IMG/VR virus record: IMGVR_UViG_3300031707_000010 | Coordinates: 5,175-69,174 of that record | Length of the DNA stretch: 64,000 bases | Origin: a virus | Direction: 5' to 3' (one strand) | Part shown: piece after piece, positions 1,516 to 62,756 of the stretch | How positions within the stretch are numbered: position 1 is the stretch's first letter | Layout: every line of letters starts with the position of its first letter | Translations under genes and position numbers: made by a program | Notes under the pieces: generated by a model | The model's database searches: none | What the model saw: only the letters and a program-made list of their open reading frames with translations | Told to the model about the DNA's origin: nothing

Positions 1516-1590
1516 GCAACCACTCTTTTATCCACGTCACTTTTTGGTATATTCAATTTACAACAAAACATGAAAGGATGCAACAATTCA

Positions 1591-6250: not shown

Positions 6251-6821
6251 CGTAACAGTTGTCTGTATTGATTGTCTTGGAAAAGCTAGAGCAGTTAAAG
6301 CTCTAGTAGAAAGCACCAATGGCATAAATTTCTTTGCTGCTAAATGGATTACATCTTTAGCTATGCTAACTCCACATCCTATAATACTTTCCCCTATTCC
6401 TCATATAGGAACTAAAGAAGATTATTCCAAATTTGTTGTCAAAGAACTGTATAAATACTTTGAAACTGATTATGTTCTAATAGTTCAATGGGATGGCTAC
6501 GTACTTAATCCTAAAGCTTGGACAGATGAGTTTCTACAGTATGATTATATTGGAGCTCCTTGGCATTTTAGAACAGATATTAAAGTAGGCAATGGTGGCT
6601 TTTCCTTACGTAGCAAAAAGCTAATGACATTACTCGCTACCAGTCCTGAGATAACTCGTCTTCATCCTGAAGATGATACTACAACAATCATCTATCGTCA
6701 GTTCTTAATAGACAAAGGAATTAAATTTGCACCAGTAGAACTTGCTTATAAATTTAGCGTTGAGCATGAACCTTATGTTGGCTCATTTGGATATCATGGA
6801 GGAAATGACCCTAGAAAATAG
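6234..6821 (+). CDS. DUF5672-like putative glycosyltransferase
   Basis: LIVQWDG, FLQYDYIGAPW, VGNGGFSLRS, ED, FSVE, FGYH. Confidence 0.8.
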   Translation: MLELPNVTVVCIDCLGKARAVKALVESTNGINFFAAKWITSLAMLTPHPIILSPIPHIGTKEDYSKFVVKELYKYFETDYVLIVQWDGYVLNPKAWTDEFLQYDYIGAPWHFRTDIKVGNGGFSLRSKKLMTLLATSPEITRLHPEDDTTTIIYRQFLIDKGIKFAPVELAYKFSVEHEPYVGSFGYHGGNDPRK

Positions 6822-9509: not shown

Positions 9510-9797
9510 ATGGTATTAGACCTTAAGCCAAAACCAGAAAACAGATTTGTTAAAGAGGTTAGATTTGAAGAGATCAAACGTGGAACCTTTAAACATAACC
9601 TCGATAGGCTTTATCATCTAATGTCTACCGAACCTGAGAAGTATGTTGGTTATGTTCTTAGGAAGAAAGATGAACTGCTTGCTACACTATGGCGTGGTGG
9701 CACTAAGGTAATTACTCTTTCTAATCATGACATCTATTACCACGAAGCTGGACAAATCATAGATGAAATTAAAAAATTCCTAGAGGAGCATAAATGA
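9510..9797 (+). CDS. Hypothetical protein
   Basis: 95-aa ORF tightly packed in operon. Confidence 0.7.
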   Translation: MVLDLKPKPENRFVKEVRFEEIKRGTFKHNLDRLYHLMSTEPEKYVGYVLRKKDELLATLWRGGTKVITLSNHDIYYHEAGQIIDEIKKFLEEHK

Positions 9798-10069
9798 AAA
9801 CTTCAATTGCTATTGCTGCACTTATTATTCTTTGTGCTATTTGCGTTGTTACTTGTTATCCTCAAGCTACTGCTAAAGATTCTCTAATGATTAAACAGGT
9901 AACAATTAGAATAGCTGAACTTCAATCAGACCTTCAGAAAGTTACTGAACAAAAGAAACAATTAGAAGAATCAGTATTGAGAATAGAAGGAGCTTTATTC
10001 ATTCTTAATGAACAAAAAATTGGAGAGACAAAAAGACTTGATTCCCTCAATGTCAAAAAGAAGCCTTAA
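9794..10069 (+). CDS. Small exported coiled-coil protein
   Basis: RBS GAGGAG, signal peptide MKTSIAIAALIILCAICVVTCYP-Q, heptad coiled coil; stop overlaps the stop of the convergent tail gene. Confidence 0.7.
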   Translation: MKTSIAIAALIILCAICVVTCYPQATAKDSLMIKQVTIRIAELQSDLQKVTEQKKQLEESVLRIEGALFILNEQKIGETKRLDSLNVKKKP

Positions 10070-34300: not shown

Positions 34301-36096
34301 TTAGCACCAATAACCGCTACAGTTAAAGTCTCAGTTATACTTTGAGAATCTTCTATAGCTAATTTATGAGCACCAACAACTCTTGAATCTAAAGTTTCTG
34401 TTATTGACTGAGAATCAAATATACTAACAAGTAATCCACCAATTCTAACTGCTAATGTTTCTGTTATTGATTGAGAATCAAATATCAAAAATTCTATTTC
34501 TGTTTCGAGATTTAAAGTTTCTGTTATTGATTGAGAATCAAATATATTAACAAGTAATCCACTAATTTTGCTTGTTAATGTTTCTGTTATAGATTCAGTA
34601 TCTTCAGCTAAACTTACTAGAGAAAGTGTAGCTCCAACAGTTTCTGTAATTGTAGTCGTATCATCTTTTGATGCAAGTACCGTACCAACTTTAAGAGTTA
34701 AAGTCTCGGTTATTGATATGGAATCTTCTACTAAAGAAACCACATTTCCAATTTTAACAGCTAAAGTCTCTGTTGTAGACTGTGTATCAAATATAGATAC
34801 TAAGCTAGTGCCAAACACTCCGACTATTAAAGTTTCTGTTACACTTTGAGTATCGTCTTTAGTAGCATAATTAGTACCAAATATACCAGCAGTTAAAGTT
34901 TCTGTTATACTCTGAGTATCATCTTTTATAGCATAGTTAGTACCAAATACTGCTCCACTTAAAGTCTCTGTAGTAGAACGAGTATCTTCAGCATTAGCTT
35001 TTAAAGCGCTTATTAATGCTGTTAATGTCTCTGTTACTGATTGAGTATCTTCAGAGTTACATTTTAGACTACTTATTAATCCAGTTAAAGTTTCTGTAGT
35101 AGAACGAGTATCTTCAGCATTAGCTTTTAAAGCGCTTATTAATGCTGTTAATGTCTCTGTTATTGTTTCTGTATCAAAAATTGAGATTAAGCTAGTACCA
35201 AATACACCAGCTATTAAAGTTTCTGTAATTGATTCTGTATCAGATATAGAAACTAGATTAGTACCAAATACTCCACCTGTTAAAGTCTCTGTAATAGAAC
35301 GAGTATCTTCAGTATTACATTTTAATCCACTTATTAATGCTGTTAAGGTTTCTGTAATAGATTGTGTATCTTCAGCATTGCATTTTAATCCACTAACTAA
35401 AGCTGTCAAAGTTTCTGTAATTGTACAGCTATCTTGAACAGAGGTTATTTTAAGAGCAGATATTAATGTTGTTAAAGTCTCAGTTATCGTACAAGTATCA
35501 GAAACTCCAGGAATTCTATTAGCACCAACAACTAAAGCTGATAAAGTTTCAGTTATAGTAGTCGTACTAGAAGCAGTTGAAGTCTTTAAAGCAGAAATTC
35601 TAGCAGTAAGTGTCTCTGTAATAGAGGTTGTACTCGCTGCAGTTGAAGTCTTTAAAGCTGTAATAACCGCAGTAGTAGTCTCTGTTATGGTACAAGTATC
35701 AGATACATTAGCTACTTTAAGAGCAGTTATAACAGCAGTAAGAGTCTCTGTTGCAGATAATGTATCAGAAACATTTAAAGGAACTAAAGGATTTACTTTA
35801 GGTGCTAAAGTTTCTGTTAAAGTACAAGTATCTGATATAGAAGTTATTTTAAGTTCAGAAATTCTACTTGTTAAAGTCTCTGTTATTGTCGTAGTGCTAG
35901 AAGCTGTTGAAGTTTTAAGTCCACTTATTGTAGCTGTAAGAGTCTCTGTTATAGTACAAGTATCTTCTGCTGTTACATTTATAGGAACTGGAGCTATATA
36001 ACCGGCAGCTATGATTGGAACAAACAACGGAGCATCGACCGCCGTAAAAACGTCGGATTTGATCTGCGGTGGGTTTCTTACATAGCCAGTTGCCAT
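31303..36096 (-). CDS. Giant Thr/Ser-rich 21-aa repeat fibre-like protein (1597 aa) with C-terminal beta-sandwich
   Basis: Roughly 70 repeats of S-I-F-D-T-[EQ]-S-I-T-E-T-L..., then ~115-aa non-repeat domain. Confidence 0.8.
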   Translation of the reverse strand: MATGYVRNPPQIKSDVFTAVDAPLFVPIIAAGYIAPVPINVTAEDTCTITETLTATISGLKTSTASSTTTITETLTSRISELKITSISDTCTLTETLAPKVNPLVPLNVSDTLSATETLTAVITALKVANVSDTCTITETTTAVITALKTSTAASTTSITETLTARISALKTSTASSTTTITETLSALVVGANRIPGVSDTCTITETLTTLISALKITSVQDSCTITETLTALVSGLKCNAEDTQSITETLTALISGLKCNTEDTRSITETLTGGVFGTNLVSISDTESITETLIAGVFGTSLISIFDTETITETLTALISALKANAEDTRSTTETLTGLISSLKCNSEDTQSVTETLTALISALKANAEDTRSTTETLSGAVFGTNYAIKDDTQSITETLTAGIFGTNYATKDDTQSVTETLIVGVFGTSLVSIFDTQSTTETLAVKIGNVVSLVEDSISITETLTLKVGTVLASKDDTTTITETVGATLSLVSLAEDTESITETLTSKISGLLVNIFDSQSITETLNLETEIEFLIFDSQSITETLAVRIGGLLVSIFDSQSITETLDSRVVGAHKLAIEDSQSITETLTVAVIGANVVSIFDTESITETLTSKIGGLLVSIFDSNTATEQFDIKIGTVLTSIFDTESASETLTLGESLPASLFDTDSIIETLTGKVSGILALTSDTENAIDEIQTASNVTVIVFDTETITEILTCLVVGANKANAEDIQSVTETLSSLVVGAHKPSIFDTESITETITAGVFGTNLVSIFDTESITETLLGDVSDLPAVAQDTINITENLYGDVGDCSVVIEDIQSITETISIKLSVNLSLFDSQSITETLLGDISDLPATTFDTESITETLFAGILINASTSETENISETLTVLISALKIAIEDSNTATETIVTKLSILPSIFDTQSITETLVGDISDLPISIFDTETITETVLGIVSLVKANAEDTQNVTETLSIVISAIKVGVEDIQSTTETLNAGTSGIYQVAEDTQSITETLALKLSISGVASDTESITENLYGDVGDCSVIIDDTVSVTETLQLKLSISAIASDTESITESLFGDVADIPILIEDSQSITETLIGKISGVLASTSDTESITETLIGFVSGANLASVSDTESIIETLLGKLSANLAITEDTQSVTETTVILSSVLGAITEDSQTITETLIELISGLKVSIFDTESITETLAGDIADLSIPIEDSISITETLVVRVVGSNLISIFDTENVVETLLTQVVGAHKPSIFDTETAIEEVITRVTGANKVSIEDVVSVNETIIIAMPLAGIVIFDTTTITETLNVQVVGNSLISIFETESITETLTSKISNLIVSIDDVISITETITSKVSGNNLVSIDDEQSIIETVALLIGGLKVSIEDVKVITETLSSKVEGNNVASIFDTVNITEILDNKISALKVAVEDSQSITETVASKVSNLSAIASDTITVEESFDENINPLQIFAGSDVDPQTWVPSIGVDLYACIDELEPPNDSDYIHSPENPSNSWCEVKLNGVIDPQVASGHQVKFRFQKSTNQGVMDFTVQLRQGVNVIAEKTINNVANTWTDDSFTLTPLQADSITDYSDLRLRFSATSS
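31730..35980. repeat. Coding tandem repeat, ~63-bp period
   Basis: Recurring aaagt(t/c)tctgt(a/t)at..attctgtatc; near-identical ~78-bp copies at ~34959 and ~35085 (126 bp apart). Confidence 0.85.
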
Positions 36097-39565: not shown

Positions 39566-40270
39566 TTATTTAAATGCGTTTCCTACTAAAAACGCTACAG
39601 TTGCAATTCCAGCACCTATTACTCCAGGAATAACCCAATTACTTGATTCTTGAGAAGTAGTTGGTTTTAAATTAATAGAAAATTCTGCATTCTTTTCTAA
39701 TATGTAAGGATTCGAATGAAGAATAAATCCACTTAGCACAAGGTCTTTTTGTTCCATTACTCCTATTGTGGTAGAATCTGGAATAGTGATGGAATGAATA
39801 TACAGCTTTGCTGAGCTACTATCAGTTCTAGTTGTTCCACTAAAGGAGTAATACCTATGAGTCGTATCAAATTTAGCAAACATATAACCATCTTTAAATG
39901 TAATCTTTCCTAAGAGCTCTAGATTTTCTATCTTTAATTCACCAATTGTCTTAGTTAAGAATAAAATTCTACCATCTTTCTCTTTAATATACTTGCTTAA
40001 CTCTTTATTTGATTTTATCTGAGCATTTAAATCTTCTTCTATTTTAGCATAACGGACTGAGATAACTTGCACTTCACCAATCAAAACTCTACGTAGACTA
40101 TCCGTTTTTGCTAACTCATTTTGTAGTGTTACGTTGGTATTACGAAGTGAGTTGTTCTCCAACTTCAGACGTATGGTAAAAACCACTAGTGCTATGACCA
40201 GTAGTGACACAACAAACAATGGGATATTTTTAGTATTAAAGATATCAGTAAATTTCATGTTAATCCTCAA
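39566..40270 (-). CDS. Spanin-like membrane protein
   Basis: N-terminal TM, coiled coil, beta region, C-terminal hydrophobic tail; follows putative endolysin. Confidence 0.5.
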   Translation of the reverse strand: MRINMKFTDIFNTKNIPLFVVSLLVIALVVFTIRLKLENNSLRNTNVTLQNELAKTDSLRRVLIGEVQVISVRYAKIEEDLNAQIKSNKELSKYIKEKDGRILFLTKTIGELKIENLELLGKITFKDGYMFAKFDTTHRYYSFSGTTRTDSSSAKLYIHSITIPDSTTIGVMEQKDLVLSGFILHSNPYILEKNAEFSINLKPTTSQESSNWVIPGVIGAGIATVAFLVGNAFK

Positions 40271-40679
40271 CTTTTATATGGACACTTGAGGAATTAACAA
40301 AAGGTGCAACTTTATTATAGAAACTAAAATACGCCACTCTACTATCTTCTAAAGAAAATGAATCTACGTGGGCATGAACTCCCCAACCTACTAAGATACA
40401 GCCTGCTGTATCTCTATTGAAATTTCCAGGATGAAACAAGATATACTCAAATTCTGGTACATCCATTACCCATAACATATGATGCCCAAGTCTAGGAGTA
40501 AACTTTGGGCTATATCTTAATCCTACTTTATAGTATCCAGCAGGAATTCTTGTTTCACCTGGAATTTTAGGATATGAAGCTTTATCTTCAAGAGTAAAGA
40601 CATCAAACACAGAATCAATTGACATTAAGCCAATTGTATCTTTCGGTGCATGAATTACTCTTTTAAGACCAAGTTCCAT
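40260..40679 (-). CDS. DUF5675-like putative endolysin (L,D-peptidase fold)
   Basis: TIG, TLED, TRIPAGYY, VPEFEYILFHPGN...DTAGCILVG, SR.A. Confidence 0.85.
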   Translation of the reverse strand: MELGLKRVIHAPKDTIGLMSIDSVFDVFTLEDKASYPKIPGETRIPAGYYKVGLRYSPKFTPRLGHHMLWVMDVPEFEYILFHPGNFNRDTAGCILVGWGVHAHVDSFSLEDSRVAYFSFYNKVAPFVNSSSVHIKVED

Positions 40680-40745
40680 ATTTTCCTCAATTGTTGGGGG
40701 CTAGAGAATCCTAGCCCCCTCGTCCACAGATAGCTCTAGGAGGCG

Positions 40746-41099
40746 TTAGGCTACTGGGGGCGGAGTCGGTGGCGTCTTTGCCATAGGCGGACGCAATTTT
40801 AAAAGCTCTAAAAGATATTGGACAAATGGAGTTGTAAACGACCAATTCGCCATTAATGCGGCTCCTAGTCCAATAACAGGCCCTGAGATGTAATCTGGTT
40901 GTGCGCCAATTACAGTAGGATCAGCAAACATTCCTAAATCTAAATATGCTCCTAAAGTTCCTACGAGTGCGCCAATAACAAGGGAACGAGCTTGTGATGC
41001 AACGCCTTCTAAGTCCCAAAATTTATCTACAAATTCGCTAAGAGCCAAAACTGCAGAAATCAAAACTGCGATGTTTACAAAAATTTCGTTCATGTTCAT
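40746..41099 (-). CDS. Putative holin
   Basis: 117 aa, three hydrophobic segments, directly upstream of endolysin; RBS GGAGG. Confidence 0.6.
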   Translation of the reverse strand: MNMNEIFVNIAVLISAVLALSEFVDKFWDLEGVASQARSLVIGALVGTLGAYLDLGMFADPTVIGAQPDYISGPVIGLGAALMANWSFTTPFVQYLLELLKLRPPMAKTPPTPPPVA

Positions 41100-41126
41100 A
41101 TAGCCTCCAAACGATTTTGGTTTAGT

Positions 41127-41162
41127 TATCCCGTTTCTCTTATTAGGAGAAACGGGATTTTT
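41127..41162 (-). terminator. Intergenic hairpin/terminator
   Basis: ATCCCGTTTCTC-loop-GAGAAACGGGAT inverted repeat. Confidence 0.6.
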
Positions 41163-41237
41163 AAAACCTTAAATGAAAAGATGCACCTTTTCATTGTAGA
41201 CACAAATTTTTCAAAGTATCTACAAAGAATGAACAGA

Positions 41238-41669
41238 TTAAACTACATGCTCAACCCAAACGAATCCAAAGTTTTCAACTGGACGAACTTGTGCAGCATT
41301 GTTCACCGTGAATCCAATTTTATTGCAATTATCCACAGTGCCATTATCGCCAGTTGTGCGAATCCAAGCAGACCCAGATTTTCCAAGCTGAGCATCCGTA
41401 AAAGTAACAAAGGTTTCAATTGCAGAACTCGGTAAATCTGATCCAACAACTTCTCCTTCACCCACAAACTGATAAACCAGATTGTGTTTTTCTACAAAAG
41501 AATCTGGTGAAGGAGTCCATGTAGCTTTAAATTTTTCCATATTTCCCTCTATGTGATTGAATGTGAAATTGCTAACAGCGTTAACTGGTTTTCTTCGCAT
41601 TATACAATAGAAAAATAACACAATAAGTGCGAAGCAAAGTAAGGCGATAATAGAAAAAAGAGTTACCAT
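41238..41669 (-). CDS. Membrane-anchored Fn3-like protein; possible internal start at 41540
   Basis: N-terminal TM, then ATWTPSPD, HNLVY, WIRTTGDNG (Fn3-like); internal AGAGGG-AAAT-ATG. Confidence 0.55.
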   Translation of the reverse strand: MVTLFSIIALLCFALIVLFFYCIMRRKPVNAVSNFTFNHIEGNMEKFKATWTPSPDSFVEKHNLVYQFVGEGEVVGSDLPSSAIETFVTFTDAQLGKSGSAWIRTTGDNGTVDNCNKIGFTVNNAAQVRPVENFGFVWVEHVV

Positions 41670-42427
41670 GTGGATACATCTCCTACAACAGCCCTATTAA
41701 GTGAATCATTTGGCATTTGATAAAGCTTCATTTTAAACACAGCTCGTTGGTCCCAACCTCTATTTTTTGTAGGATCTCCAAGAATTTTTTCCATTCTAAT
41801 GTGAACATACCAATCGTAAGGCTTACCTTTAAAACTATCGCTCCACTCCTCTACAGGTGTTGGCCCTGCAGAATAGATATACCACCCATGACCGTTCTGG
41901 TCTAATACCTTACGAGCGTAAGTAAGCCAACGAGAAATTTTTACAGTAGAATCTCGAGTACGCCCAAGAGTGTCGTATAAATTAGGAGCTGACCCTCCTC
42001 CTAAGCCTAAGCTATCTGGAACAAAAACTCCTCGTTTTTCTACTATCCAAATCCAACTTGAATCATCGCAAGTTTTTCTAGCCCATGAAAATAATGCTTT
42101 ACGTTGGTCTCCACGTCCAGTAACAGAATCAAAAGAGAAGTGATAATCTATAGAATAAGTTATCCAAGCAGAATCTTTACCACCGCAGGTTGTTGCACTC
42201 CACAATCTTTCATCGGGAGCTTTCCACCAAAATCCTTGTTTAATATAACAGAAGATTGTTGTTTCTCGTGCGGCTTCTTCACATAGATTAAAATACATAA
42301 ACGCAGCTCGTTTTTGACTCCAATATAAGGAATCCCCTTTTAAATTTACCCATACTTTTGGTTGAGAAAGAACTGTAGAAGTGAACAACAACAGAAGAAG
42401 TCCGGCGCGCTTCATTTGACGCCTCAT
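41663..42427 (-). CDS. Exported protein, aromatic-rich (possible glycan-binding/hydrolase fold)
   Basis: Signal peptide MKRAGLLLLLFTSTVLS-Q; many W/Y; seven D(S/T)(A/L/V/T) sequons. Confidence 0.6.
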   Translation of the reverse strand: MRRQMKRAGLLLLLFTSTVLSQPKVWVNLKGDSLYWSQKRAAFMYFNLCEEAARETTIFCYIKQGFWWKAPDERLWSATTCGGKDSAWITYSIDYHFSFDSVTGRGDQRKALFSWARKTCDDSSWIWIVEKRGVFVPDSLGLGGGSAPNLYDTLGRTRDSTVKISRWLTYARKVLDQNGHGWYIYSAGPTPVEEWSDSFKGKPYDWYVHIRMEKILGDPTKNRGWDQRAVFKMKLYQMPNDSLNRAVVGDVSTW

Positions 42428-43005
42428 GGTTTCGGAATTGACCCTGGAAATAAATGTTCAAATCCTTTGCTGACCCAACCCATTGGATCTACTTGTTGTA
42501 ATCCCAAAGAATGTAATACAGATAAAAACATAAAACCGCCTACAAGAATTAAAATAAGTTTTCCAGTTTTGCTAGTTATAAATTTACCTGTCTTAGTTTC
42601 TTTTTTGTAAGTATTCCAAGCATCTTCTGCACGTACGGTTGCTCGTACAGAAGTAGTTAATCTTTGAATTTCTATTTGGCCCTCTGATAGTTTAGCTAAA
42701 CTGCTCATTATAGCAGTATGCTCATTGGCGTTTTGTTTAGTGAGGGTGTCTACACTATTAATTAGATTCATATGGCCCTCCTTATAATCTTTTTTAAATT
42801 TAGCTAAATCTGCAATATCTTCTCTTAATTCTCTTTCAATCTCTAAAATCTTACCCCCAAATTTTTGCTCACTGAGCATCATCTTTTCATCTACACGACT
42901 TAACACTTGATCCGTAAGCTTATGAATCTCTGTTAATACTTCTGCTAAGTCTACTAAATGAACGACTTCTACAGGGGTCTTAATTGCGGCCGATTTAGGA
43001 GTCAT
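42424..43005 (-). CDS. Coiled-coil protein with C-terminal TM helix
   Basis: Heptads then LILILVGGFMFLSVLHSLG. Confidence 0.6.
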   Translation of the reverse strand: MTPKSAAIKTPVEVVHLVDLAEVLTEIHKLTDQVLSRVDEKMMLSEQKFGGKILEIERELREDIADLAKFKKDYKEGHMNLINSVDTLTKQNANEHTAIMSSLAKLSEGQIEIQRLTTSVRATVRAEDAWNTYKKETKTGKFITSKTGKLILILVGGFMFLSVLHSLGLQQVDPMGWVSKGFEHLFPGSIPKP

Positions 43006-43385
43006 GTTTTTCTTTCTTTAAATGAGAACCAAATTAGGAATATTCCTATAACCCAACTACCGATTTCAAGATACCAAAAGTCTGGCCACCAATTATACCC
43101 TGGTTTAATATGAATGAAACTATCAAGGTATAGATGTATTGCATAAGCTGGATGCCAATAAAAAGTATTGACCAGATCTCCAGTGTGCATCCTTGTATAA
43201 TATTCCCATCTTGTAGCTCCAAAAAATGTTGCTGCAACCCAATCAAATATGTCTGGCCAAATGCCGCCAATAAAACCAAAAATAGATGCTATTAAGACTG
43301 CCTGTTTTCTCCAAATCTTTGGCATCCATCTCCAAGGTAATGCACAAAATCCAGCACCTAAAACTCCATGAGCTAGAAATGTCAT
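43002..43385 (-). CDS. Membrane-bound metal-dependent hydrolase-like (YdjM-like) protein
   Basis: N-terminal AHG, G..PDIFD, RMH, HLYLD..H motifs within TM helices. Confidence 0.6.
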   Translation of the reverse strand: MTFLAHGVLGAGFCALPWRWMPKIWRKQAVLIASIFGFIGGIWPDIFDWVAATFFGATRWEYYTRMHTGDLVNTFYWHPAYAIHLYLDSFIHIKPGYNWWPDFWYLEIGSWVIGIFLIWFSFKERKT

Positions 43386-43711
43386 GTTCCTGTCTCCACT
43401 AATTTTAGCTGCAATTCTTTATGTCGATTTTTATAATATCTATTAATTCTTCTTTTCTCTAATACTTCTACCCACCAAGCTGCGTCGCAGACTCTACATT
43501 TTCTAAATTTATTTCCTACAATTCTATTACACTTAGGACATAATACTGTTATCTTTGGAACTAATACTTCGTTACTATGAAGAGCAGCAAACAATGCTTC
43601 ATGAAGAATTTGTACTTCTTGTTTTAATTGAAGACAATACTTTATTAAGTCTTTTCGAGACATTTCTTCCCAAATTACAAAAGGCTTATCTTCAAATTTA
43701 AATTTGTTCAT
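43382..43711 (-). CDS. Hypothetical zinc-ribbon protein
   Basis: CPKC...CRVC. Confidence 0.6.
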   Translation of the reverse strand: MNKFKFEDKPFVIWEEMSRKDLIKYCLQLKQEVQILHEALFAALHSNEVLVPKITVLCPKCNRIVGNKFRKCRVCDAAWWVEVLEKRRINRYYKNRHKELQLKLVETGT

Positions 43712-44400
43712 GGATTTGGCTTTACGCTAGCGGTACAAATTGACCAGTCTTCTGAATTCCATTTACTCCAACTCATAGTAACTGAAGACGCCCCAGATTC
43801 CTGAGACGAACCAAATGCCAATTCTCCAGTTCTAGAACTCCAATAGTATCCAGATTGTCCAGATCCTACTGTAAAACCTCCTCCATCGTATGTCGCACAA
43901 GCATCAATTACAATTTCTCCTTCAGCACTCGTTTGATCTCTAGTTGCAGTTGTTGAAGTTCCTTCAGCTTCTCCACTATAACTAAATGGAGTGCTTTGAT
44001 CTACTTCATTCCAGCTTGTAGCTAATGCTCTAAAATCGCTAGTTGAAGAACTCAAAGTAACGACAATATCATGTGTTCCATCATCTGGGAGTAACAAATA
44101 CCAAATTGCAGATCTAAATCCACCTTTATCTCTATCTACAAGTTCTGTTAAAGCATCTCCATTATAAGCTATAGATGTAACAGTTCTATAAGCTACTCCT
44201 AAACATACTGTAAGCATTCCATTATCAGTAGCACAAGTGTGACTCCACGTAGTTGCAGAACTTTGTGTAGTATCGTCAACTCCGAATTCTCCAGATGGCC
44301 CTCCCCCTGAACCTTTAAAAGGAAGGATGAAAATATCTTGTGCTTTTATGGGTGCAATCCATAATAGCATTAAGGCAATGTACGCGTACCTATTATCCAT
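43708..44400 (-). CDS. Exported beta-sandwich protein resembling phage fibre-tip domains
   Basis: Signal peptide ..YIALMLLWIAPIKA-Q; WSHT, VTSIAYNG.ALT, IWYL..P..GTH.IVVT, VDQSTP. Confidence 0.65.
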   Translation of the reverse strand: MDNRYAYIALMLLWIAPIKAQDIFILPFKGSGGGPSGEFGVDDTTQSSATTWSHTCATDNGMLTVCLGVAYRTVTSIAYNGDALTELVDRDKGGFRSAIWYLLLPDDGTHDIVVTLSSSTSDFRALATSWNEVDQSTPFSYSGEAEGTSTTATRDQTSAEGEIVIDACATYDGGGFTVGSGQSGYYWSSRTGELAFGSSQESGASSVTMSWSKWNSEDWSICTASVKPNP

Positions 44401-47291
44401 ACTTTTAATCCTGCTCCAGCTATCGTTGACCCTATTTGATCTACAAAAATTTTAATTTCTGAATCATCCGCTAATGAAGCATCTGTAATTGTTGCTTGTG
44501 TAGAATTTGGATATGAAGATTTAGCTGATACATCAATTTGACATTTTGTTCCTAAAATAGTCGTTCCAGATTCATGAATATCTACATGAAGAGAAGACCC
44601 CGTCGGAGCTGTTGTAACACTTGCTCTTATGCCAGTAACTGTCATGGCATAAGGCATTCTAAAAGTCATCTTTTCTACAGAAGTTGAAGCAGTTAACGCA
44701 GTTGTTTCATCTGAACACGCAATTCCTATAACAGTAGGATAAGAAGCTTTACTTACAAAATTAGAACTGACCCATCCTTGAGTTGCTCCTCCAGTTGTTC
44801 CAACTGCTTGTCTTAATTCAAATCCAGTAAAAGTCGTTCCATTTCTTATAAATAAAAACGATGAGGATTCTCCATTAGTAGGTTGTGGTGCAGTAGATAA
44901 TCCAGACCAAGTTATTCCCGTAGGCCAAGTAACTGTTTTATTATTTGGATTATAAAGAGTTAAAATATTATCTCTTCTTTTTGAATTACTCATTAAAATT
45001 CTAGTATTAGCAGTTAAAGTATCCACAGTAATTGTATTATTCCAATCTAAATATACTGTATCTGAAGTAACTGCGTATGATAATGTTCCAAAAAGAAAGT
45101 CTTGTGAAAAATTGCTGTATCCTGCAGAATTTCCAGCTGCAATTCCCCATGCTAAATTTAAATTTTCTGGAAGATTAGTAACATTAACAAAAGTATCAGG
45201 AAAATCTTCTCTAAGTAAATATGTAGTTGTCCAATTTATTGTTCCATAATTAAACTTATACTTTGTAGCTCCTGTAACTTTTCTCCATTTAAAAGTATAA
45301 TCCGGAGGAATTAGCCACGCATTTGCTGTAGGTTGAACAATTTGTGTAGGTATATCAGGAATTGTTTCTCCAGGACCTCCACCGTCTGTAATTATTCCTA
45401 TTGGAGCTCCAATATCTCTCCACTGTTTTCCACCACTGAAAAAATAAATCCTATCATTTGTAGCAGTTGTTATAGATTTATTAAAGGTTACAGTTCCAGC
45501 GTGGTGATCTATAGAACTAATTCTAACTATATCTACAGTAGAGGCATGAACAATAAGTAAACTATCTCCATATAACGTAAATCCTGCTCCCCATACAGTT
45601 CCTACTGTATAATCATCTCTAAATAACCAAGTATCTACTCCAAGAGTTTGAGTAGCACTTGTAGTTCCAGTAACAATCTGCGATAGAGCGACTGCTTTTC
45701 CTTTAGCAGCGCTTGTAGGTTTAGGTCTAAAATCATAACTTCCTACCCAAGCAGTTGGATATACTGGAGCATTCTCAAATCCCGGATCTGCCCAAATGCT
45801 TGAATCTTCTCCCCCTTTACATATCGTTCCAGTAACAAAAGAGACATGGTTTGTCATTCCTAAGTTTGTATCTGGAGAATCTCCAATATCTTGAAATTTA
45901 CCGCCGTAAGCCATAGAGTCTGGATAATCCCAATAAAGATTTCCATTTACATGATAAGCAGGAGTTCCAGTTCCAGTACCCCCACTTGTATTATAATTTG
46001 GCTTCAATCTCATAAGGGCTCCTGCCCCACTCCCTGTTCCTCCATTATTAGGCATTCCAACAACTATATTATTTAACACCCATCCACAATACCCTCCAGT
46101 TGTTCCTGCATCCATGTTATAAGCACCTGAAGATTTTTGAGTAGTGTTCCATCTTCTTCTATTATTCGCAAAAGTATTGTGATAGGCCATAAAACTACCA
46201 GAATAATCCATCCCATCTCCATTAGAATACAACACATTATTTCGATAAATCATAAAATGTTCCATTCTTGAAGGAGTTCCACGACAAAAAGCAGCTCCAG
46301 TTCCATAGTGAGAATCTGAAATTCCAACTACTGTTTGATCTCCATCGTCATCATTCTTAGTACCCCAAACAGTACATCCTTCAACCATAGACCGCCAAGC
46401 ACCCTTAGGATCGAAAGCATTTTCTCCTGCATTTTTAAGAATACTATTTCTAACAAGAATTTGAGCTGAAGAATCTGCATAATCGCTATTAATTTGGATG
46501 TTATCTTCTTCCCAAGATGTATCCATATAACACTGTTCTATTAAATGTCCTGTATAACCTACGCCTGCTCCTCCAGAATAAGTTAATACAAAATTACTTT
46601 CTCCTTGATTAGTAATTGTATCTCGATAAAGTGTTGAATGATCTGCTGCTCCTCCATCTATAGCTATTCCAATACCTGGAGTTCTAAAAACTTTTGTATT
46701 CATAACCGTAGTATGTGAACCGCCTATTACAATTCCACGATCTTTATAATAATGGATCCAATAATCGTGAGCTACATCTGTAGATCCAGAACTCACCCAA
46801 CAACGATCCATAATTCCATAATCTCCTGCCATCTGTACATAATAGGTAGCAGCTGTTGCTTTTGTATAATCATTACACATAAAACCTAATCTATATAATT
46901 TTACATAATCTCCTGTAACAACAGCTACATTCCTTTGATTTTGCCAACGCCAATCATCGTCAGTATCATAATATGTTCCATTCAAATATCCTACAATTAC
47001 TGGATAACTTGTGTCTGTAGCAGCCATATAAACAAGCATTGCTCCAGAAGTTCCATTTCTAGATTGATAAAGATCTTCGTTGTAAGTTCCACCGTACATT
47101 TTAATAGTATCAATTCCACCTGCCCCTAATTCTGCATTTGCTTTATGTAAAGTCCACGCATCTGTTTTACTAGTTCCACCATTGCTAGATGAACCATCTG
47201 GAGCAACATATTTAATTGTTCCAGAATAAATTAAAGTTGGAAATAGAATTAATAAAACTAAATATCTTAATTTTAAGGTAATTGTATCCAT
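44370..47291 (-). CDS. Exported right-handed beta-helix (pectate-lyase/depolymerase-like) protein with Fn3-like and phage fibre-type C-terminal domains
   Basis: Signal-like LKLRYLVLLILFPTLIYS-G, YVAPDG..NGGT...AW, GGTY, RNNVLY/HNTFANN/NNIVV repeats, ADPGF, C-terminal ACSDETTALT..FRMPY..GLKV; ATG 47291 preferred over 47336. Confidence 0.75.
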   Translation of the reverse strand: MDTITLKLRYLVLLILFPTLIYSGTIKYVAPDGSSSNGGTSKTDAWTLHKANAELGAGGIDTIKMYGGTYNEDLYQSRNGTSGAMLVYMAATDTSYPVIVGYLNGTYYDTDDDWRWQNQRNVAVVTGDYVKLYRLGFMCNDYTKATAATYYVQMAGDYGIMDRCWVSSGSTDVAHDYWIHYYKDRGIVIGGSHTTVMNTKVFRTPGIGIAIDGGAADHSTLYRDTITNQGESNFVLTYSGGAGVGYTGHLIEQCYMDTSWEEDNIQINSDYADSSAQILVRNSILKNAGENAFDPKGAWRSMVEGCTVWGTKNDDDGDQTVVGISDSHYGTGAAFCRGTPSRMEHFMIYRNNVLYSNGDGMDYSGSFMAYHNTFANNRRRWNTTQKSSGAYNMDAGTTGGYCGWVLNNIVVGMPNNGGTGSGAGALMRLKPNYNTSGGTGTGTPAYHVNGNLYWDYPDSMAYGGKFQDIGDSPDTNLGMTNHVSFVTGTICKGGEDSSIWADPGFENAPVYPTAWVGSYDFRPKPTSAAKGKAVALSQIVTGTTSATQTLGVDTWLFRDDYTVGTVWGAGFTLYGDSLLIVHASTVDIVRISSIDHHAGTVTFNKSITTATNDRIYFFSGGKQWRDIGAPIGIITDGGGPGETIPDIPTQIVQPTANAWLIPPDYTFKWRKVTGATKYKFNYGTINWTTTYLLREDFPDTFVNVTNLPENLNLAWGIAAGNSAGYSNFSQDFLFGTLSYAVTSDTVYLDWNNTITVDTLTANTRILMSNSKRRDNILTLYNPNNKTVTWPTGITWSGLSTAPQPTNGESSSFLFIRNGTTFTGFELRQAVGTTGGATQGWVSSNFVSKASYPTVIGIACSDETTALTASTSVEKMTFRMPYAMTVTGIRASVTTAPTGSSLHVDIHESGTTILGTKCQIDVSAKSSYPNSTQATITDASLADDSEIKIFVDQIGSTIAGAGLKVWIIGTRTLP

Positions 47292-50245
47292 GTGTCCGCC
47301 ACTCGTTGGTACATGAAGAGTTTTGTTGAATGCCAATAAAAGTCACCGTTGTTTCCACCTGTTGGATCTGTTGACCCATAAGTATAGCTCGTTTTTCCAT
47401 TCAATTGCGTTTGAATAGCACTTGTAACTCCATCTACAAAATTAAGTTCTGCTCCTGTTGGTAAAACAGATACAGCTCCAAGAGTAAAAGGAGTTGGAAT
47501 AGTAACAGTCCCCGTAAAAGTGGGGGAGCTTTTGGGAGCGTATATTAATGTGCTATAATTTCTTATACTAGTGCTATCTGCATTTTTAAGATATAAGATA
47601 TTGCTATAATTTCTTATACTAGTGCTATCTGCATTTTTAAGATATAAGATATTGCTATAATTTCTTATACTAGTGCTATCTGCATTTTTAAGAACTGCTG
47701 TTAAAAATGCTTTAGCTGCTAACGAAGTACCAAGTCCAGCTGTATCGCTAGCTACCCATCCTGGAATAGTACCATTACTTCCTAAGCGTTGACCGATAGT
47801 GCCTACTGTCAATCTAGTAAAATATCCAGATGAGTTTCTATAAAATATATCTCCCGTCGCATCAGATGTTAAAGTAAAAGTTGGAGTGCCTGTAAAAACA
47901 GGCGACGTAAACATTGTTGCTTTACTTTCATTAGTAACATTCTGTAAAGCTAAAGCAGTTTTAACCGCTGAAGCATCTGACGATGCCCAAGCTCCTCCAA
48001 CAGAAAGAATCATGTTGCCAGTTGTAGGAGTTAATCCAGCAATTGTTGTTAAGTCTGCGTCTAAAGGTTGTTTTCCTGATAATGATGTACCTAAACCTGC
48101 CGTATCGCTAGCTGCCCAAGTTGGAATAGTACCATTACTTCTAATATGATAGCCAGTTGTTCCAAGTCCAAGACGAGTAAAATAACCTGAAGAGTTTCTA
48201 TAAAACATATCTCCTGTAGCATCACTTGTAAGCGTGAATGTTGGCGATCCTGTAAAAGTGGGGCTCGTGAACATTGTTGATTTAGATTCATTTGTGACAT
48301 TCTGTAAAGCTAATGCAGTTTTAACAGTTGCTGGATTAGCAGAACTCCATGCCGAGCTTGCTGCTAAAATCATATTATTATCTGTAGGCGTCAATCCTGC
48401 TAGTGTCGTTAAATCTGAATCTAAAGGCTGTTTACCTGCTAGTCCTAATATTACTCTAGCAATAGTAGCTAATCCAGTTGCTGCCGTTGATGTATCAGCA
48501 CTTAAAGTAATAGCACCCGATGTTGCACCCCCAGTTATCGGCGTATTTGTACTTACAGAAGTTATATCCCCATAATTCATAGCATTAATATCTGCCCACG
48601 TAGGCAACCACGTAGTAGTATCTGTAGCAAGAACATAATTACCTGATGCTTGTTTACCTGCAAGTCCAAGTGTTACTCTTGCTATTGTAGCTAAGCCTGT
48701 AGCTGCTGTAGAAGTATCTGCACTTAATGTTATTGCTCCAGACATCGCTCCACCTGTTATGGGGGTATTAGTGCTAACTGATGTAATATCCCCATAATTC
48801 ATGGCATTTATATCAGACCATGTAGGAAGCCAAGTAGTTGTATCTCCTTTAGCAGGATACAAAAAATTACTATAAGTTCTAATATATCCACTATCAGCTG
48901 GAACTAAATATACACCACTGGCTTGTTTCCCCGCTAATCCTAATGTAACTCTTGCTATTGTTGCAAGTCCAGTTGCTGCTGTGCTTGTATCAGCACCAAT
49001 GGTTACGCCACCACTCGACCCTCCACCTGTTATGGGGGTAGTTACACTCACCCCAGTTATGTCACCATAATTCATTGCGTTGATGTCTGACCAGGTGGGT
49101 ACCCAAGTTGCTGTATCTGCTTTTGCTATGTATAAAGCATTACTTTGATTTCTAAGAGATGTTGAATCAGCATTTTTAAGAAATGTATTATTTGACCAAT
49201 AACGAGTGGCATAAACTGAGGAATCCGGAGTTGCAATTGTGATAAGATATTTTGTGTAAGCTAAAAAAGTAGCTGAATCTTGTTTTGATATTAAATCTGA
49301 TAAAAGTTTAGTTCTATAAATATCTCTAAAAATCATATTACTTGCTGCATCTAAAGTTATCCAAACTGTATCTTGAGCCGTACCTTCCCAAAGTCCAATT
49401 TTTCTAAATTGCTGGTCTCCCCATAAAAATAAATCTTGTGTATGATCGAAAGCTGAACTAGCTAAACTTCTTGCGTATGCGCGAGTAGCAGCTGAATCTG
49501 TATTTCCCATTCGTAGTGTACCACTAACCTTCAATACTCCATTAACATACATGCTATCTTTAACATAAGTAAATCCTGGATTTACAGAAAAAGTTTCTAT
49601 TGAATTAATTGTAGCAGTTAAAGGTTTTCCACTTGTTGTTGAAAAAGCTCCTGCGGTTCCACTAACAGAAGCTGCCCAAATGCCATATCCAGCACCTTGA
49701 TTAGTACCAACTAACGCCATAGAAGTAGCAGAAGACGATGCAGAATTTAATGTAGCTGCTACCCCCATAGATAATGCTGCTGTTGATGGATTATATACTT
49801 CAATTGACGCCTCTCCACCTGAATTTGCTACATTAAAAATTTGCTTAGCATACCAAGTTTTTGTAAGATTTTTTTGAGCTACGTTTGTATCAACACCAAT
49901 TCGTATTTGATTAGAAACTGAACTATCTATTAAAATTCCCGTATTTGCTGTAAGAGTTTTAAACCATAATGTAGTATCTGTCTTATTCTTGTAGATTTTA
50001 AATCCAGTTCCTACGTTTCCTCCTGTACCAACACTTCCACTACCTCCAGTTGGAGCCGCCCATGCTGCACTTCCATTAATCTGCTTTGTTAATACGTAGC
50101 CTGTAGAACCTCCAAGCAGAATTAAGCTCTTATTGAAATAAGTGCTTTCAGCAAATTCTACAGGGGTTCTAAACTTTTGATTTTGAGCAACAAGAAGGGC
50201 TGGTATTAAAAGCAGTAAGAAAAGAATTAATAGCAGTCTTTTCAT
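47273..50245 (-). CDS. Exported fibre-like repeat protein (990 aa)
   Basis: Signal peptide MKRLLLILFLLLLIPALLVA-Q; fibre-type motifs KQPLDADLT.IAGL, LQNVTNESKATMF, SPTFTG, VDGVTSAIQTQLNGK, DPTGGNNGDFYW. Confidence 0.8.
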   Translation of the reverse strand: MKRLLLILFLLLLIPALLVAQNQKFRTPVEFAESTYFNKSLILLGGSTGYVLTKQINGSAAWAAPTGGSGSVGTGGNVGTGFKIYKNKTDTTLWFKTLTANTGILIDSSVSNQIRIGVDTNVAQKNLTKTWYAKQIFNVANSGGEASIEVYNPSTAALSMGVAATLNSASSSATSMALVGTNQGAGYGIWAASVSGTAGAFSTTSGKPLTATINSIETFSVNPGFTYVKDSMYVNGVLKVSGTLRMGNTDSAATRAYARSLASSAFDHTQDLFLWGDQQFRKIGLWEGTAQDTVWITLDAASNMIFRDIYRTKLLSDLISKQDSATFLAYTKYLITIATPDSSVYATRYWSNNTFLKNADSTSLRNQSNALYIAKADTATWVPTWSDINAMNYGDITGVSVTTPITGGGSSGGVTIGADTSTAATGLATIARVTLGLAGKQASGVYLVPADSGYIRTYSNFLYPAKGDTTTWLPTWSDINAMNYGDITSVSTNTPITGGAMSGAITLSADTSTAATGLATIARVTLGLAGKQASGNYVLATDTTTWLPTWADINAMNYGDITSVSTNTPITGGATSGAITLSADTSTAATGLATIARVILGLAGKQPLDSDLTTLAGLTPTDNNMILAASSAWSSANPATVKTALALQNVTNESKSTMFTSPTFTGSPTFTLTSDATGDMFYRNSSGYFTRLGLGTTGYHIRSNGTIPTWAASDTAGLGTSLSGKQPLDADLTTIAGLTPTTGNMILSVGGAWASSDASAVKTALALQNVTNESKATMFTSPVFTGTPTFTLTSDATGDIFYRNSSGYFTRLTVGTIGQRLGSNGTIPGWVASDTAGLGTSLAAKAFLTAVLKNADSTSIRNYSNILYLKNADSTSIRNYSNILYLKNADSTSIRNYSTLIYAPKSSPTFTGTVTIPTPFTLGAVSVLPTGAELNFVDGVTSAIQTQLNGKTSYTYGSTDPTGGNNGDFYWHSTKLFMYQRVADTWIQLP
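47551..47692. repeat. Perfect 51-bp coding tandem repeat (~2.8 copies; LKNADSTSIRNYSNILY)
   Basis: tgctataatttcttatactagtgctatctgcatttttaagatataagatat starting at 47551, 47602, 47653. Confidence 0.95.
47720..49110. repeat. Internal module duplications in the 990-aa protein
   Basis: Three copies of TW.PTW.DINAMNYGDIT...ADTSTAATGLATIARV.LGLAGKQ and two copies of KQPLD.DLTT...LQNVTNESK...SDTAGLGTSL. Confidence 0.85.
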
Positions 50246-50860: not shown

Positions 50861-50901
50861 AAAAAAGGTGTGGAACTTTGCAGTCCCACACCTTTGTTTT
50901 G
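50861..50901 (-). terminator. Rho-independent terminator after major capsid gene
   Basis: AAAGGTGTGG-loop-CCACACCTTT with T-run on the minus strand. Confidence 0.75.
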
Positions 50902-52104: not shown

Positions 52105-52599
52105 TTAGGATGCTGAAAGAGCATTAAAATGTGATTCACCATTAATATTAATCTTGCACTTCAAATCGGCATCATCTTCGTTTACCGCACACACAGCAAA
52201 ATCTCCACTAAGAGACAGATCTGGTTCATATGCAGAATCATATGCTGAATCTTCCTGGAAAGAATACTTTAAAGTCGTAGTGTTATACAAAGGAACCATT
52301 TTGCAACCAACCCACACGGTTCCAGTAACAGTTGCGAGGATAACTGCTTTCAAAGCAACAATAGCAGTAGTTTCACCAGACTTCTTTCCTGCCTGAGCGA
52401 TACCAATTAATGAAGCCTGAAGCGCGCCACCTGCGGTTGTATCAGCAGGAGCGTACTTCTTAACTTCGTTTGCCGTTGTATCCCAGTAAAGCAAATCTCC
52501 TTGGCCCCAAGTAGAACCAACGGCGGCCGGGAGAACTTTGTAAGACAGATTATCGTTCGCCCACTGGAGTACTTCAATGCCATTGAGTATGTGACTCAT
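52105..52599 (-). CDS. Capsid cement/decoration protein
   Basis: QGDLLY..., IGIA pattern; position between scaffold and capsid. Confidence 0.65.
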   Translation of the reverse strand: MSHILNGIEVLQWANDNLSYKVLPAAVGSTWGQGDLLYWDTTANEVKKYAPADTTAGGALQASLIGIAQAGKKSGETTAIVALKAVILATVTGTVWVGCKMVPLYNTTTLKYSFQEDSAYDSAYEPDLSLSGDFAVCAVNEDDADLKCKININGESHFNALSAS

Positions 52600-54083: not shown

Positions 54084-54112
54084 AATATAATTGGTTGACT
54101 CTATTTTGTCAA
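54084..54112 (-). promoter_or_regulatory. sigma70-like promoter for head genes
   Basis: TTGACA-17 nt-TATATT. Confidence 0.7.
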
Positions 54113-60117: not shown

Positions 60118-60146
60118 AATATAACAAAAGAAGTCTCTTTTGTCAA
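60118..60146 (-). promoter_or_regulatory. sigma70-like promoter
   Basis: TTGACA-17 nt-TATATT with TG extension. Confidence 0.75.
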
Positions 60147-61383: not shown

Positions 61384-61411
61384 AATATAACACTAAAAAA
61401 GCATTTGTCAA
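61384..61411 (-). promoter_or_regulatory. sigma70-like promoter
   Basis: TTGACA-16 nt-TATATT with TG extension. Confidence 0.65.
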
Positions 61412-61635: not shown

Positions 61636-61735
61636 GCGGCAGTATCTTGCTAGTATCCCTCCGGTATCCCGCCACTATCTACGCCGATAAGTTCGGCAGT
61701 ATCCTGCCAGTATCCTGCCAGTATCCCTCTGCTAT
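61636..61735 (+). repeat. 11-bp-period degenerate repeat (CAGTATCCTGC)
   Basis: cagtatcttgc tagtatccctc cggtatcccgc cactatctacg ... cagtatcctgc cagtatcctgc cagtatccctc. Confidence 0.75.
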
Positions 61736-62401: not shown

Positions 62402-62430
62402 AATATAACACAATGAAATCACCGAGTCAA
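62402..62430 (-). promoter_or_regulatory. sigma70-like promoter
   Basis: TTGACT-17 nt-TATATT with TG extension. Confidence 0.7.
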
Positions 62431-62756
62431 TAGTCAATGCGGCACTAGAGGGAATAGAGTAGGCAGATGGGTGGCATTGCGGAACACTTCGGAAGAAGAA
62501 ACGCCGAATCATGCGGAGTACCAACAAAGAAGGCGACTAGAACTTAGCCGCCAGTATCTTGCCGTCCAACCCCCGGTATCTTATCGGAAAAGTTCGGCAG
62601 TATCCTGCTGCTATCCCTCCAGAATGGCGGATAGAAAACTCGGACTCATTCGGAAAAAGATTTGTGGAAAAATTTCTTTTCGTAGGTGGCCGGCAGTATC
62701 TTGCCTTTATAACTCGTGGGTATCTTGCCTCATGTCCTAGGCAGTATCTTCAAACC

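Follow-up and report, generated by a model that had tools for sequence, protein, structure and literature searches.

Phage proteins with predicted signal peptides and dense O-glycosylation-type sequons beside a lysis cassette

A 64 kb stretch of viral DNA, here called the window (positions 5,175-69,174 of the 69,174-base IMG/VR record IMGVR_UViG_3300031707_000010, for which CheckV gives a completeness of 43%), encodes a group of phage proteins that combine predicted signal peptides with a high density of the tripeptide D-[ST]-[AILVMT], the sequon that Bacteroidota use in their general protein O-glycosylation. A preliminary description of the window had proposed that such proteins are exported and carry host glycan. 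The sequon excess is confirmed as real and exceeds chance. Its restriction to those relatives of the 990-residue protein that bear signal peptides, the residue pattern at the three positions of the motif, the expression signals of the phage, and the conserved gene order are likewise direct observations. The proteins are, with moderate probability, predicted to leave the cytoplasm through the Sec pathway and to be O-glycosylated by the host, and the role of the resulting glycoproteins is the weakest step of this explanation.

Sequon excess in proteins with predicted signal peptides

The sequon was counted by script in 59 chosen open reading frames (ORFs) of the window, with expectations drawn from 1000 composition shuffles of each protein. 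Signal peptides were called heuristically by an in-house hydrophobicity scan combined with inspection by eye, which also set the cleavage sites. A strongly hydrophobic N-terminal region was found in 10 of the 59 ORFs, eight of which lie within positions 39566-50245. Five of the ten, encoding proteins of 990, 988/973, 230, 254, and 91 amino acids (aa), were classed by eye as having cleavable signal peptides; the other five, together with one protein that has a C-terminal hydrophobic segment, make up a membrane-anchored class (n=6). The signal-peptide proteins are given below with a slash at the predicted cut.

47273..50245, minus strand: 990-aa fibre-like protein; signal peptide cut LVA/QNQ; 14 sequons, about 9 of them independent
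47551..47693, minus strand: perfect 51-bp tandem repeat within the 990-aa gene, 2.8 copies, each giving a 17-aa unit that includes KNADSTS
44370..47291, minus strand: 973-aa protein (988 aa from an upstream TTG); signal peptide cut IYS/GTI; 6 sequons in the mature part
43708..44400, minus strand: 230-aa protein; signal peptide cut IKA/QDI; 1 sequon; C-terminal part resembling a PHROG 'minor tail protein' family
41663..42427, minus strand: 254-aa all-beta protein; signal peptide cut VLS/QPK; 7 sequons
9794..10069, plus strand: 91-aa coiled-coil-like protein; signal peptide cut CYP/QAT; 2 sequons

All five show the usual layout of a positive N-terminus, a hydrophobic segment, and small residues before the predicted cut. 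Glutamine stands at the predicted position +1 in four of them (LVA/Q, VLS/Q, IKA/Q, and CYP/Q), the exception being IYS/G. As neither the 990-aa nor the 973-aa gene has an in-frame ATG, GTG, or TTG in codons 2-60, these two proteins would be made only as precursors. With the TTG start, the 988-aa ORF shares 64 bases (47273-47336) with the end of the 990-aa gene; the ATG at 47291, which lies 15 codons downstream and opens a normal signal peptide, is the likelier start and gives the 973-aa protein.

Pooled, the five signal-peptide proteins hold 31 sequons against 13.5 expected (p<0.001), while the reverse motif occurs 13 times against 13.7. The internal repeats of the 990-aa protein (a perfect 17-aa unit present three times, one of about 74 aa present three times, and one of about 120 aa present twice) inflate its count and were therefore collapsed. 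The mature parts of the five proteins then hold 25 sequons against 10.9, a value reached by none of 5000 shuffles, and 18 against 10.2 when the 254-aa protein is left out (p=0.012). Singly, the excess is seen in the 254-aa protein (7 against 0.88, p<0.001), the 990-aa protein (14 against 5.66, p=0.001; mature and with repeats collapsed, 9 against 3.4, p=0.004), and the 91-aa protein (2 against 0.15-0.17, p=0.008), and also in a 234-aa protein that has a membrane segment at either end (3 against about 0.62-0.63, p=0.017). The six membrane-anchored proteins together have 4 against 2.1. The remaining 48 proteins show no significant excess (76 against 66.2), and the capsid protein has 1 against 1.57. 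Five large Ser/Thr-rich tail or fibre proteins that lack a signal peptide lie at chance (33 against 32.9). The comparison with shuffled controls, which the preliminary description had itself proposed, hence places the exported group above chance. Its counts by eye were reproduced as well: 14, 7, 2, and 3 in the 990-, 254-, 91-, and 234-aa proteins, 3 in SbcC, 1 in the capsid protein, and 7 in the 988-aa protein that it called a beta-helix protein (or 6 without the one inside the signal peptide). The 51-bp repeat is indeed perfect, with one sequon per copy.

Four of five control tripeptides (E or N at position 1, A or G at position 2, or the order swapped) stay at or below expectation, as does the reverse motif, and D[ST] followed by other residues is slightly, not significantly, raised. 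The other proteins are rich in E[ST][AILVMT] (158 against 76), but this was discarded as a glycosylation-like signal, for it comes from the ITETL repeats of two giant signal-peptide-free proteins of 1597 aa (31303-36096, minus strand) and 849 aa (26907-29456, minus strand). Almost the whole of both is made up of roughly 20-aa units whose core reads (F/E)D(T/S)x(S/T)ITETL, and they hold 77 and 34 copies of the E-type tripeptide, respectively. The 849-aa gene is preceded by that of a 94-aa protein which matches the podophage fibre-tail adaptor family Gp77.

The strongest support for export and glycosylation comes from the relatives of the 990-aa protein. Its modules, mostly those of residues 550-960, are common to 2071 proteins (HMMER, E<=1e-3), and the best 149 of these, the 990-aa protein itself aside, were analysed. 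The heuristic flagged a signal peptide in 51 of the 149, eight of which were unconvincing and were moved by eye to the class without one; 32 of the 43 convincing signal peptides have glutamine at +1. Those 32 relatives, which are phylogenetically non-independent and in many cases have the NADST unit in common, hold 345 sequons against 115.9 (2.98-fold; 22 of 32 above 1.5-fold; reverse motif 0.85), or 2.68-fold with the NADST units masked. The longer unit LKNADST of the window protein is likewise found among its relatives. The 11 relatives with a signal peptide but another residue at +1 are intermediate (75 against 49.1, 1.53-fold; 4 of 11 above 1.5-fold; reverse motif 1.03). The 106 relatives without a signal peptide fall below expectation (370 against 538, 0.69-fold; 7 of 106 above 1.5-fold; reverse motif 1.22). 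This restriction to signal-peptide-bearing relatives supports the view that the sequon excess is tied to export.

The residue pattern of the 32 relatives points the same way. At the first position D alone is enriched (2.97, with E at 0.37 and N at 1.09), and at the second S (4.7) and T (1.7). At the third position T and V (both 4.4), I (2.4), L (2.0), M (1.9), and A (1.4) are preferred, S and N are near 1.1, and D, F, G, P, W, Q, E, Y, R, K, and H reach at most 0.65. No such pattern appears in the signal-peptide-free relatives. The published Bacteroidota motif, defined by experiment, is D(S/T)(A/I/L/M/T/V); according to the part of the study cited here, position 3 of glycosylated sites was never occupied by R, H, K, W, or Y (PMC10897501). 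Judged from the sequences, the preferences of the 32 relatives at all three positions equal that motif. The family contrast and the residue pattern together suggest selection for the motif, which would be hard to explain otherwise.

The 254-aa protein belongs to a small family in which the same association is conserved. Its seven relatives are 37-73% identical; in all six whose sequence extends over the N-terminus, Q comes directly after a signal peptide, and the signal peptide is kept in all seven full-length members of the family. The eight members, that of the window included, hold 54 sequons against 6.2 expected (8.8-fold). Sequons D100, D152, and D159 are kept in eight of eight members and D241 in seven of eight, and substitutions within the sequons stay within the motif, for example DST to DTL. 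A further match in genome G003 (E 2.3e-4) lies inside a portal-like ORF and was rejected as spurious. Among the 12 relatives retrieved for the 230-aa protein, signal peptides are absent and the sequon count is near chance (20 against 18.6). From this distribution, the copies in the window and in a second viral contig, L096 (positions 1344-2132), appear each to have gained a signal peptide with glutamine at +1. The N-termini of the 12 relatives carry a TWSHTC motif. In the 988-aa family 31 sequons were counted against 22.9.

The predicted exported genes, the lysis genes, and their recurrence

Every gene between 10066 and 63275 is on the minus strand. The order in that direction is a promoter-like site, head genes, the capsid gene, a hairpin, the region of exported and lysis genes, and a methyltransferase gene with the tail genes. 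Besides the signal-peptide genes given above, the region and its upstream boundary hold the following features.

54084..54112, minus strand: TTGACA-17-TATATT promoter-like site, upstream of the head-gene operon that continues into the exported cluster
50864..50895, minus strand: strong terminator-like hairpin of 14 pairs with a T run, upstream of the exported genes and just behind the gene for the capsid
43002..43385, minus strand: 127-aa membrane protein, 0 sequons
42424..43005, minus strand: 193-aa protein with a C-terminal membrane segment, 1 sequon
41238..41669, minus strand: 143-aa protein with an N-terminal membrane anchor, 0 sequons
40746..41099, minus strand: 117-aa protein, two hydrophobic segments, no family match; its position alone suggests a holin
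40260..40679, minus strand: 139-aa DUF5675 protein (E 6.5e-27)
39566..40270, minus strand: 234-aa protein, a membrane segment at either end, 3 sequons in between

DUF5675 occurs in 213 phage records, where it is annotated as an endolysin of the L,D-carboxypeptidase/transpeptidase type and the named hosts are Gram-negative. The preliminary description had called the 234-aa protein spanin-like, a label that does not hold under the definitions of spanins. These call either for an inner-membrane subunit with a single N-terminal anchor and a lipoprotein partner in the outer membrane, or for one chain that has an N-terminal lipobox and a C-terminal anchor. Its hydrophobic segments lie at residues of about 10-40 and 211-233, so that it is anchored at both ends; it has no cysteine in the N-terminal 40 residues and no lipobox, and a lipoprotein partner was not searched for systematically. 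A search of eight exported and membrane proteins against NCBIfam gave no family, and hence no C-terminal domain of type IX secretion was seen among them.

The 990-aa protein has weak tblastn matches in two phage records, and its nearest Atlas clusters are viral, which serves as a lead only. The 973-aa protein is possibly a right-handed beta-helix. The window protein has no Pfam match, and two relatives (P0174 and L096 2096-3859) give sub-threshold matches to Beta_helix, DUF1565, Pel9A-like, and chondroitinase B families. Its structure model, at a predicted local distance difference test (pLDDT) value of 40.9, is unusable and too poor for a fold search. The 254-aa protein was modelled at pLDDT 61.7, and Foldseek returned no match for its fold at E<=0.001. 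A likeness to domain I of flavivirus envelope proteins was rejected, as the best Z of 7.9 in a wide VIA search is within the noise level of the tool.

Family searches of the window gave a capsid protein of Phage_capsid_4, a weak portal match, a tail-tube match, an SbcC-like nuclease, and a PDDEXK nuclease, and a 1514-aa protein was read as the tape measure. The tail-tube match and the presumed tape measure argue that the phage is long-tailed and therefore not a crAss-like podovirus. No relatives were found among 50,697 deposited phage genomes, either of the head region at the DNA level (blastn) or of the portal protein (tblastn).

The module recurs in other sequences. The viral contig L096 has a GC content of 54.6% against 36% in the window and shows the same gene order: a fibre gene, a gene like that of the 230-aa protein, a beta-helix-like gene, a two-anchor membrane protein, and a DUF5675 endolysin. 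Its fibre, which is cut by the contig end, has NADST units and 17 sequons in 471 aa. Its relative of the 230-aa protein has a signal peptide followed by Q, and so does the protein with weak beta-helix matches, which has 9 sequons in 587 aa. The membrane protein anchored at both ends, the counterpart of the 234-aa protein, holds 4 sequons between its anchors. A further contig, L097, encodes a 226-aa protein with a signal peptide, Q at +1, and 8 sequons.

A bacterial relative came from a DNA search of 20 kb of the window against 401 genomes each of the class of G001, an Ignavibacteriaceae genome (four short matches), and of the class of another genome, G002 (six). One match, of 53 nt at 87% identity (E 2e-9), is a homologous gene in a prophage of an Ignavibacteria-class genome, G100; no CRISPR-like repeats (clustered regularly interspaced short palindromic repeats) were found around three other short matches (L140-L142). 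The fibre of the G100 prophage is itself one of the relatives analysed above (P0148); it has a signal peptide with Q at +1 and is 35% identical to residues 597-793 of the 990-aa protein. It is followed by a 1172-aa protein, again with signal peptide and Q, that has 15 sequons against 4.8. A 133-aa protein of the same prophage (L147 and L148; G100:C1:3855001-3895000, positions 16971-17369) has a lipobox, VAGC, and a C-terminal anchor, which is the layout of a single-chain spanin, and 6 sequons against 0.68. Together the four exported proteins of the prophage hold 26 sequons against 8.9, and the other 29 ORFs 20 against 15.5.

The host

The preliminary description had taken the host to belong to the Bacteroidota. 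The glutamine at +1 and the sequon pattern agree with this, whereas the expression signals are unlike those of Bacteroides and Flavobacterium controls. A Shine-Dalgarno-like motif precedes 30 of the 59 genes of the window (background 8%), and the motif TAnnTTTG is found upstream of none of the 59. The corresponding values are 5 and 7 of 46 in Bacteroides phage B40-8, and 3 and 11 of 65 in Flavobacterium phage 11b. In 500 kb of a Parabacteroides genome the Shine-Dalgarno motif precedes 14 of 294 genes and TAnnTTTG 23.5%, while in 500 kb of the Ignavibacteriaceae genome the values are 103 of 325 and 8.6%. The TAnnTTTG motif was sought in the 100 nt upstream of annotated or chosen genes in the phages and the window, and in the 60 nt upstream of crudely called ORFs in the genomes. 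Further, TTGAC(A/T)-N16-17-TATATT occurs at four intergenic sites on the gene strand against 0.19 expected (54084-54112, 60118-60146, 61384-61411, and 62402-62430, all minus). The Shine-Dalgarno sites and these promoters argue against a host among the Bacteroidales or Flavobacteriales. Many genes of the G100 prophage are also preceded by Shine-Dalgarno-like motifs, as seen by eye and uncounted.

The Q-type cleavage site speaks for a Bacteroidota-type host. In the data cited here from a survey of signal peptides, Q at +1 averages 71% in Bacteroidetes and reaches 77% in Ignavibacterium album, and it is below 9% in most Chlorobi and typically below 20% in Spirochaetes and Chlamydiae (PMC5837995). 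The Ignavibacteriaceae genome has Q-type sites in 53 of 81 signal-peptide-like proteins. In view of the Shine-Dalgarno use, the promoters, the glutamine at +1, and the G100 prophage, the host is probably a Shine-Dalgarno-using, Q-rule lineage of the Bacteroidota in the sense of GTDB, such as Ignavibacteria, and not one of the Bacteroidales or Flavobacteriales.

Other searches gave no further lead to the host. The capsid protein had no match in 401 genomes of the phylum of G001. The 254-aa protein and its family alignment found nothing on viral contigs, and on genome contigs only a 21-residue match in a Chloroflexi metagenome-assembled genome, which was discounted. An alignment of the NADST unit gave 25 pattern matches on genome contigs, none of which was confirmed, and P0029 and P0060 had no match on viral contigs. 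No tRNA genes were found in the window.

Proposed glycosylation, role of the proteins, and rival explanations

We infer export, cleavage, glycan attachment, and the host from the sequence features above. The region between the capsid and tail genes would be a late-gene module in which a lysis cassette is mixed with Sec precursors, namely the 990-aa fibre-like, 973-aa, 230-aa, and 254-aa proteins, with the 91-aa protein encoded elsewhere as a further member. Sec would carry the precursors through the inner membrane, and most would then lose their signal peptide to signal peptidase I directly ahead of a glutamine, following the 'Q-rule' of Bacteroidota-type hosts. In the periplasm, the general O-glycosylation machinery of the host would then attach its glycan to the Ser or Thr of D-(S/T)-(A/I/L/V/M/T). 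Sites would have been selected to high density in the fibre-like, 254-aa, and 91-aa proteins and in the periplasmic stretch of the 234-aa protein.

Several results weigh against this explanation, as do the reassignment by eye and the kinship noted for the relatives of the 990-aa protein. That exported proteins are sequon-rich holds for the 990-, 254-, 91-, and 234-aa proteins; the 988-aa (7 against 5.24) and 230-aa (1 against about 1.5-1.59) proteins show no significant excess, and neither does the fibre of the G100 prophage taken alone (2 against 2.5). Two proteins without an export signal are nominally rich in the motif, the DUF5675 endolysin (3 against 0.39) and a 164-aa head-decoration-like protein (52105-52599, minus strand; 4 against 0.76). 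The tandem DSAYDSAY accounts for two of the four sequons of the latter. The expression signals are unlike those of the four Bacteroidia-type controls, and no report was found of a D-S/T-X glycosylation system operating in Ignavibacteria. The Parabacteroides genome, used as a positive control (500 kb, crudely called), is flat, with signal-peptide proteins at 0.81 times and cytoplasmic proteins at 0.87 times the expected sequons; the values in the Ignavibacteriaceae genome are 1.51 and 1.32. Sequon excess in exported proteins was therefore dropped as a genome test for the glycosylation system, and sequon density is no validated predictor of it. The flat control also disagrees with the statement, in the part cited of a review, that nearly every Bacteroidota family of the GTDB tree, and Fibrobacterota too, show enrichment of the motif in their non-cytoplasmic proteins (PMC12871550).

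As for the role of the proteins, one proposal is that the fibre and an enzyme form a pair which matures in the periplasm and meets the phage particle only after the holin has opened the inner membrane; we put this forward tentatively, at somewhat below an even chance. Both its modules of fibre type and the location of its gene behind that of the capsid speak for an appendage of the virion. The 990-aa protein has modules in common with phage fibre proteins, as a virion fibre should. It departs from the cytoplasmic synthesis and retained docking N-terminus of such a fibre, since it has a signal peptide and no alternative start. Two further points count against a place in the virion: tailed-phage particles assemble in the cytoplasm, and the tail module of the phage has large fibre proteins of its own without signal peptides. 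The wider generalisation, that some tailed phages of Bacteroidota-type (here probably Ignavibacteria-like) hosts build a part of their host-recognition gear outside the cytoplasm by Sec export, with N-terminal glutamine, dense O-glycosylation, and late joining to the particle, is unlikely as matters stand.

The same exported and glycosylated proteins may never enter the particle and act instead from the periplasm or the surface of the infected cell, a role that we regard as possible though on balance doubtful. They may aid lysis or release, prevent superinfection, or destroy or mask receptors and thereby spare progeny from being lost on debris. In the window, L096, and the G100 prophage alike, lysis genes lie among the exported genes or adjoin them. 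Envelope proteins that are not fibres are sequon-rich too (the 234-aa protein, its L096 counterpart, and the 133-aa protein of G100). The cytoplasmic assembly of particles and the giant signal-peptide-free fibres of the tail module, with their fibre-tail adaptor match, fit such a role as well. It sits less easily with the modules that the 990-aa protein has in common with very many phage fibre proteins, or with a location in the late structural operon right behind the capsid gene.

Rather than a glycan acceptor, the tripeptide could be a structural element, used in the repeat of the fibre and in a single small beta protein and passed down in a clade that happens to have signal peptides as well. 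In the 990-aa protein, repetition of units accounts for five of the 14 sequons, the sequon has a fixed place in the 17-, 74-, and 120-aa units, and D-S/T followed by a hydrophobic residue is a plausible start of a strand or turn. The lack of a general excess in exported Parabacteroides proteins and the uncorrected kinship of the 32 relatives leave room for this account. However, the excess persists after the repeats are collapsed or masked, and proteins with no kinship to one another show it (the fibre, the 254-aa family, the two-anchor membrane proteins, the 133-aa spanin-like lipoprotein, and the 1172-aa protein), while the signal-peptide-free relatives built of the same modules fall to 0.69-fold. 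Moreover, all three positions fit the preference of the enzyme, including Thr and Ala at position 3 and the exclusion of Glu from position 1. A purely structural origin is accordingly improbable.

Phage-encoded glycosyltransferases glycosylate phage proteins in some mycobacteriophages, and the window has a block of sugar enzymes at 1510-6821 on the plus strand (a methyltransferase-like protein, a GT2 glycosyltransferase, an NAD-dependent epimerase/dehydratase, a second GT2-like protein, and DUF5672), but cytoplasmic glycosylation by these without any host system is very improbable, as the excess tracks signal peptides and not virion proteins such as the capsid and the fibres, the residue preferences match those of the host's periplasmic system, and the block is distant, on the opposite strand, and in a different module. 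The target of the block may be host surface glycan, phage protein, or DNA. The best genome matches of the epimerase, at 55-58% identity, come from many phyla, with Patescibacteria leading and some Bacteroidota and Cloacimonetes among them, and are uninformative about the host.

Among known systems, the exported proteins are closest to the substrates of Bacteroidota O-glycosylation in that they are predicted to be extracytoplasmic and show the same motif preferences (PMC10897501, PMC12871550, each as cited in part). For example, DS(L/I/V) and DTL are given as the commonest glycosylated forms in P. intermedia (PMC10897501); these forms also occur in the window, where DSL is the commonest (6 of 30). 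They differ from the known substrates in being phage-encoded, in the denser sites, and in a host that probably lies outside the classes with a demonstrated system. The cited part of the review of Bacteroidota O-glycosylation makes no mention of phage (PMC12871550). Prophage proteins of Porphyromonas gingivalis are similarly phage-encoded, of no known function there, and equipped with host-type signal peptides and glutamine at +1, which their authors read as an adaptation to the host secretion system (PMC10367356). That paper, in the part cited, describes neither glycosylation nor a fibre-like architecture; the proteins of the window are large, fibre-like, sequon-dense, and linked to lysis.

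By description, the closest parallel in which a cell exports phage-like fibres is that of the mosaic adhesive trimer (MAT) fibres of Bdellovibrio bacteriovorus, which resemble phage tail fibres, lie outside the cytoplasm, and bind surface glycans there (PMC10769870). Unlike the window proteins, the MAT fibres are encoded by a bacterium of another phylum for its own surface, and the cited part of the work mentions no sequon glycosylation (PMC10769870). Likewise, gp22 of the crAss-like phage PhicrAss001 is a modular trimeric fibre of a Bacteroidota phage. Its residues 1-26 are held in a docking hub, so that its N-terminus is uncleaved, and signal peptides and glycosylation go unmentioned in the portion cited (PMC10172136). 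Among the matches listed in a search of full-text literature, no report was found of phage proteins that use Bacteroidota O-glycosylation or of exported tail fibres of Bacteroides phages. New, then, are a long-tailed phage that uses Shine-Dalgarno sites, the link to a lysis cassette, the contrast within one protein family together with the residue pattern, and a relative in the class Ignavibacteria.

Use of the sequons would mean that phages turn a glycosylation system spread across a bacterial phylum to the proteins that they themselves export, and do so at densities (12-50 sequons per 1000 aa) far above those of the two sampled bacterial genomes (about 2-4). The combination of signal peptide, glutamine at +1, and dense D-S/T-hydrophobic sites would be a signature by which phages of Bacteroidota-type hosts could be recognised in metagenomes, and the D-S/T-X system would extend to lineages such as Ignavibacteria. 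It would also bear on the purpose of glycosylating exported proteins in Bacteroidota, which a 2025 review lists as unknown in the part cited (PMC12871550). Should the fibres reach the particles, the rule of cytoplasmic assembly of tailed phages would be broken by a new assembly route, and phage surfaces could carry host-type glycans, with relevance to recognition, stability, and immune visibility.

Parts of the stretch were found in 14 sediment-metagenome runs, at least half of it only in X1, which may be the source, and X2 (0.69 of words in X2), and small shares were not used as evidence. Elsewhere in the window, the sequence GATACTG(G/C)C occurs at 10 sites against 0.78 expected, eight of which lie in the intergenic stretches 61638-61725 and 62550-62748 (minus strand). 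Both clusters end in a TTGAC(A/T)-N16-17-TATATT promoter-like site, and they look like the operator or iteron arrays of an early region.

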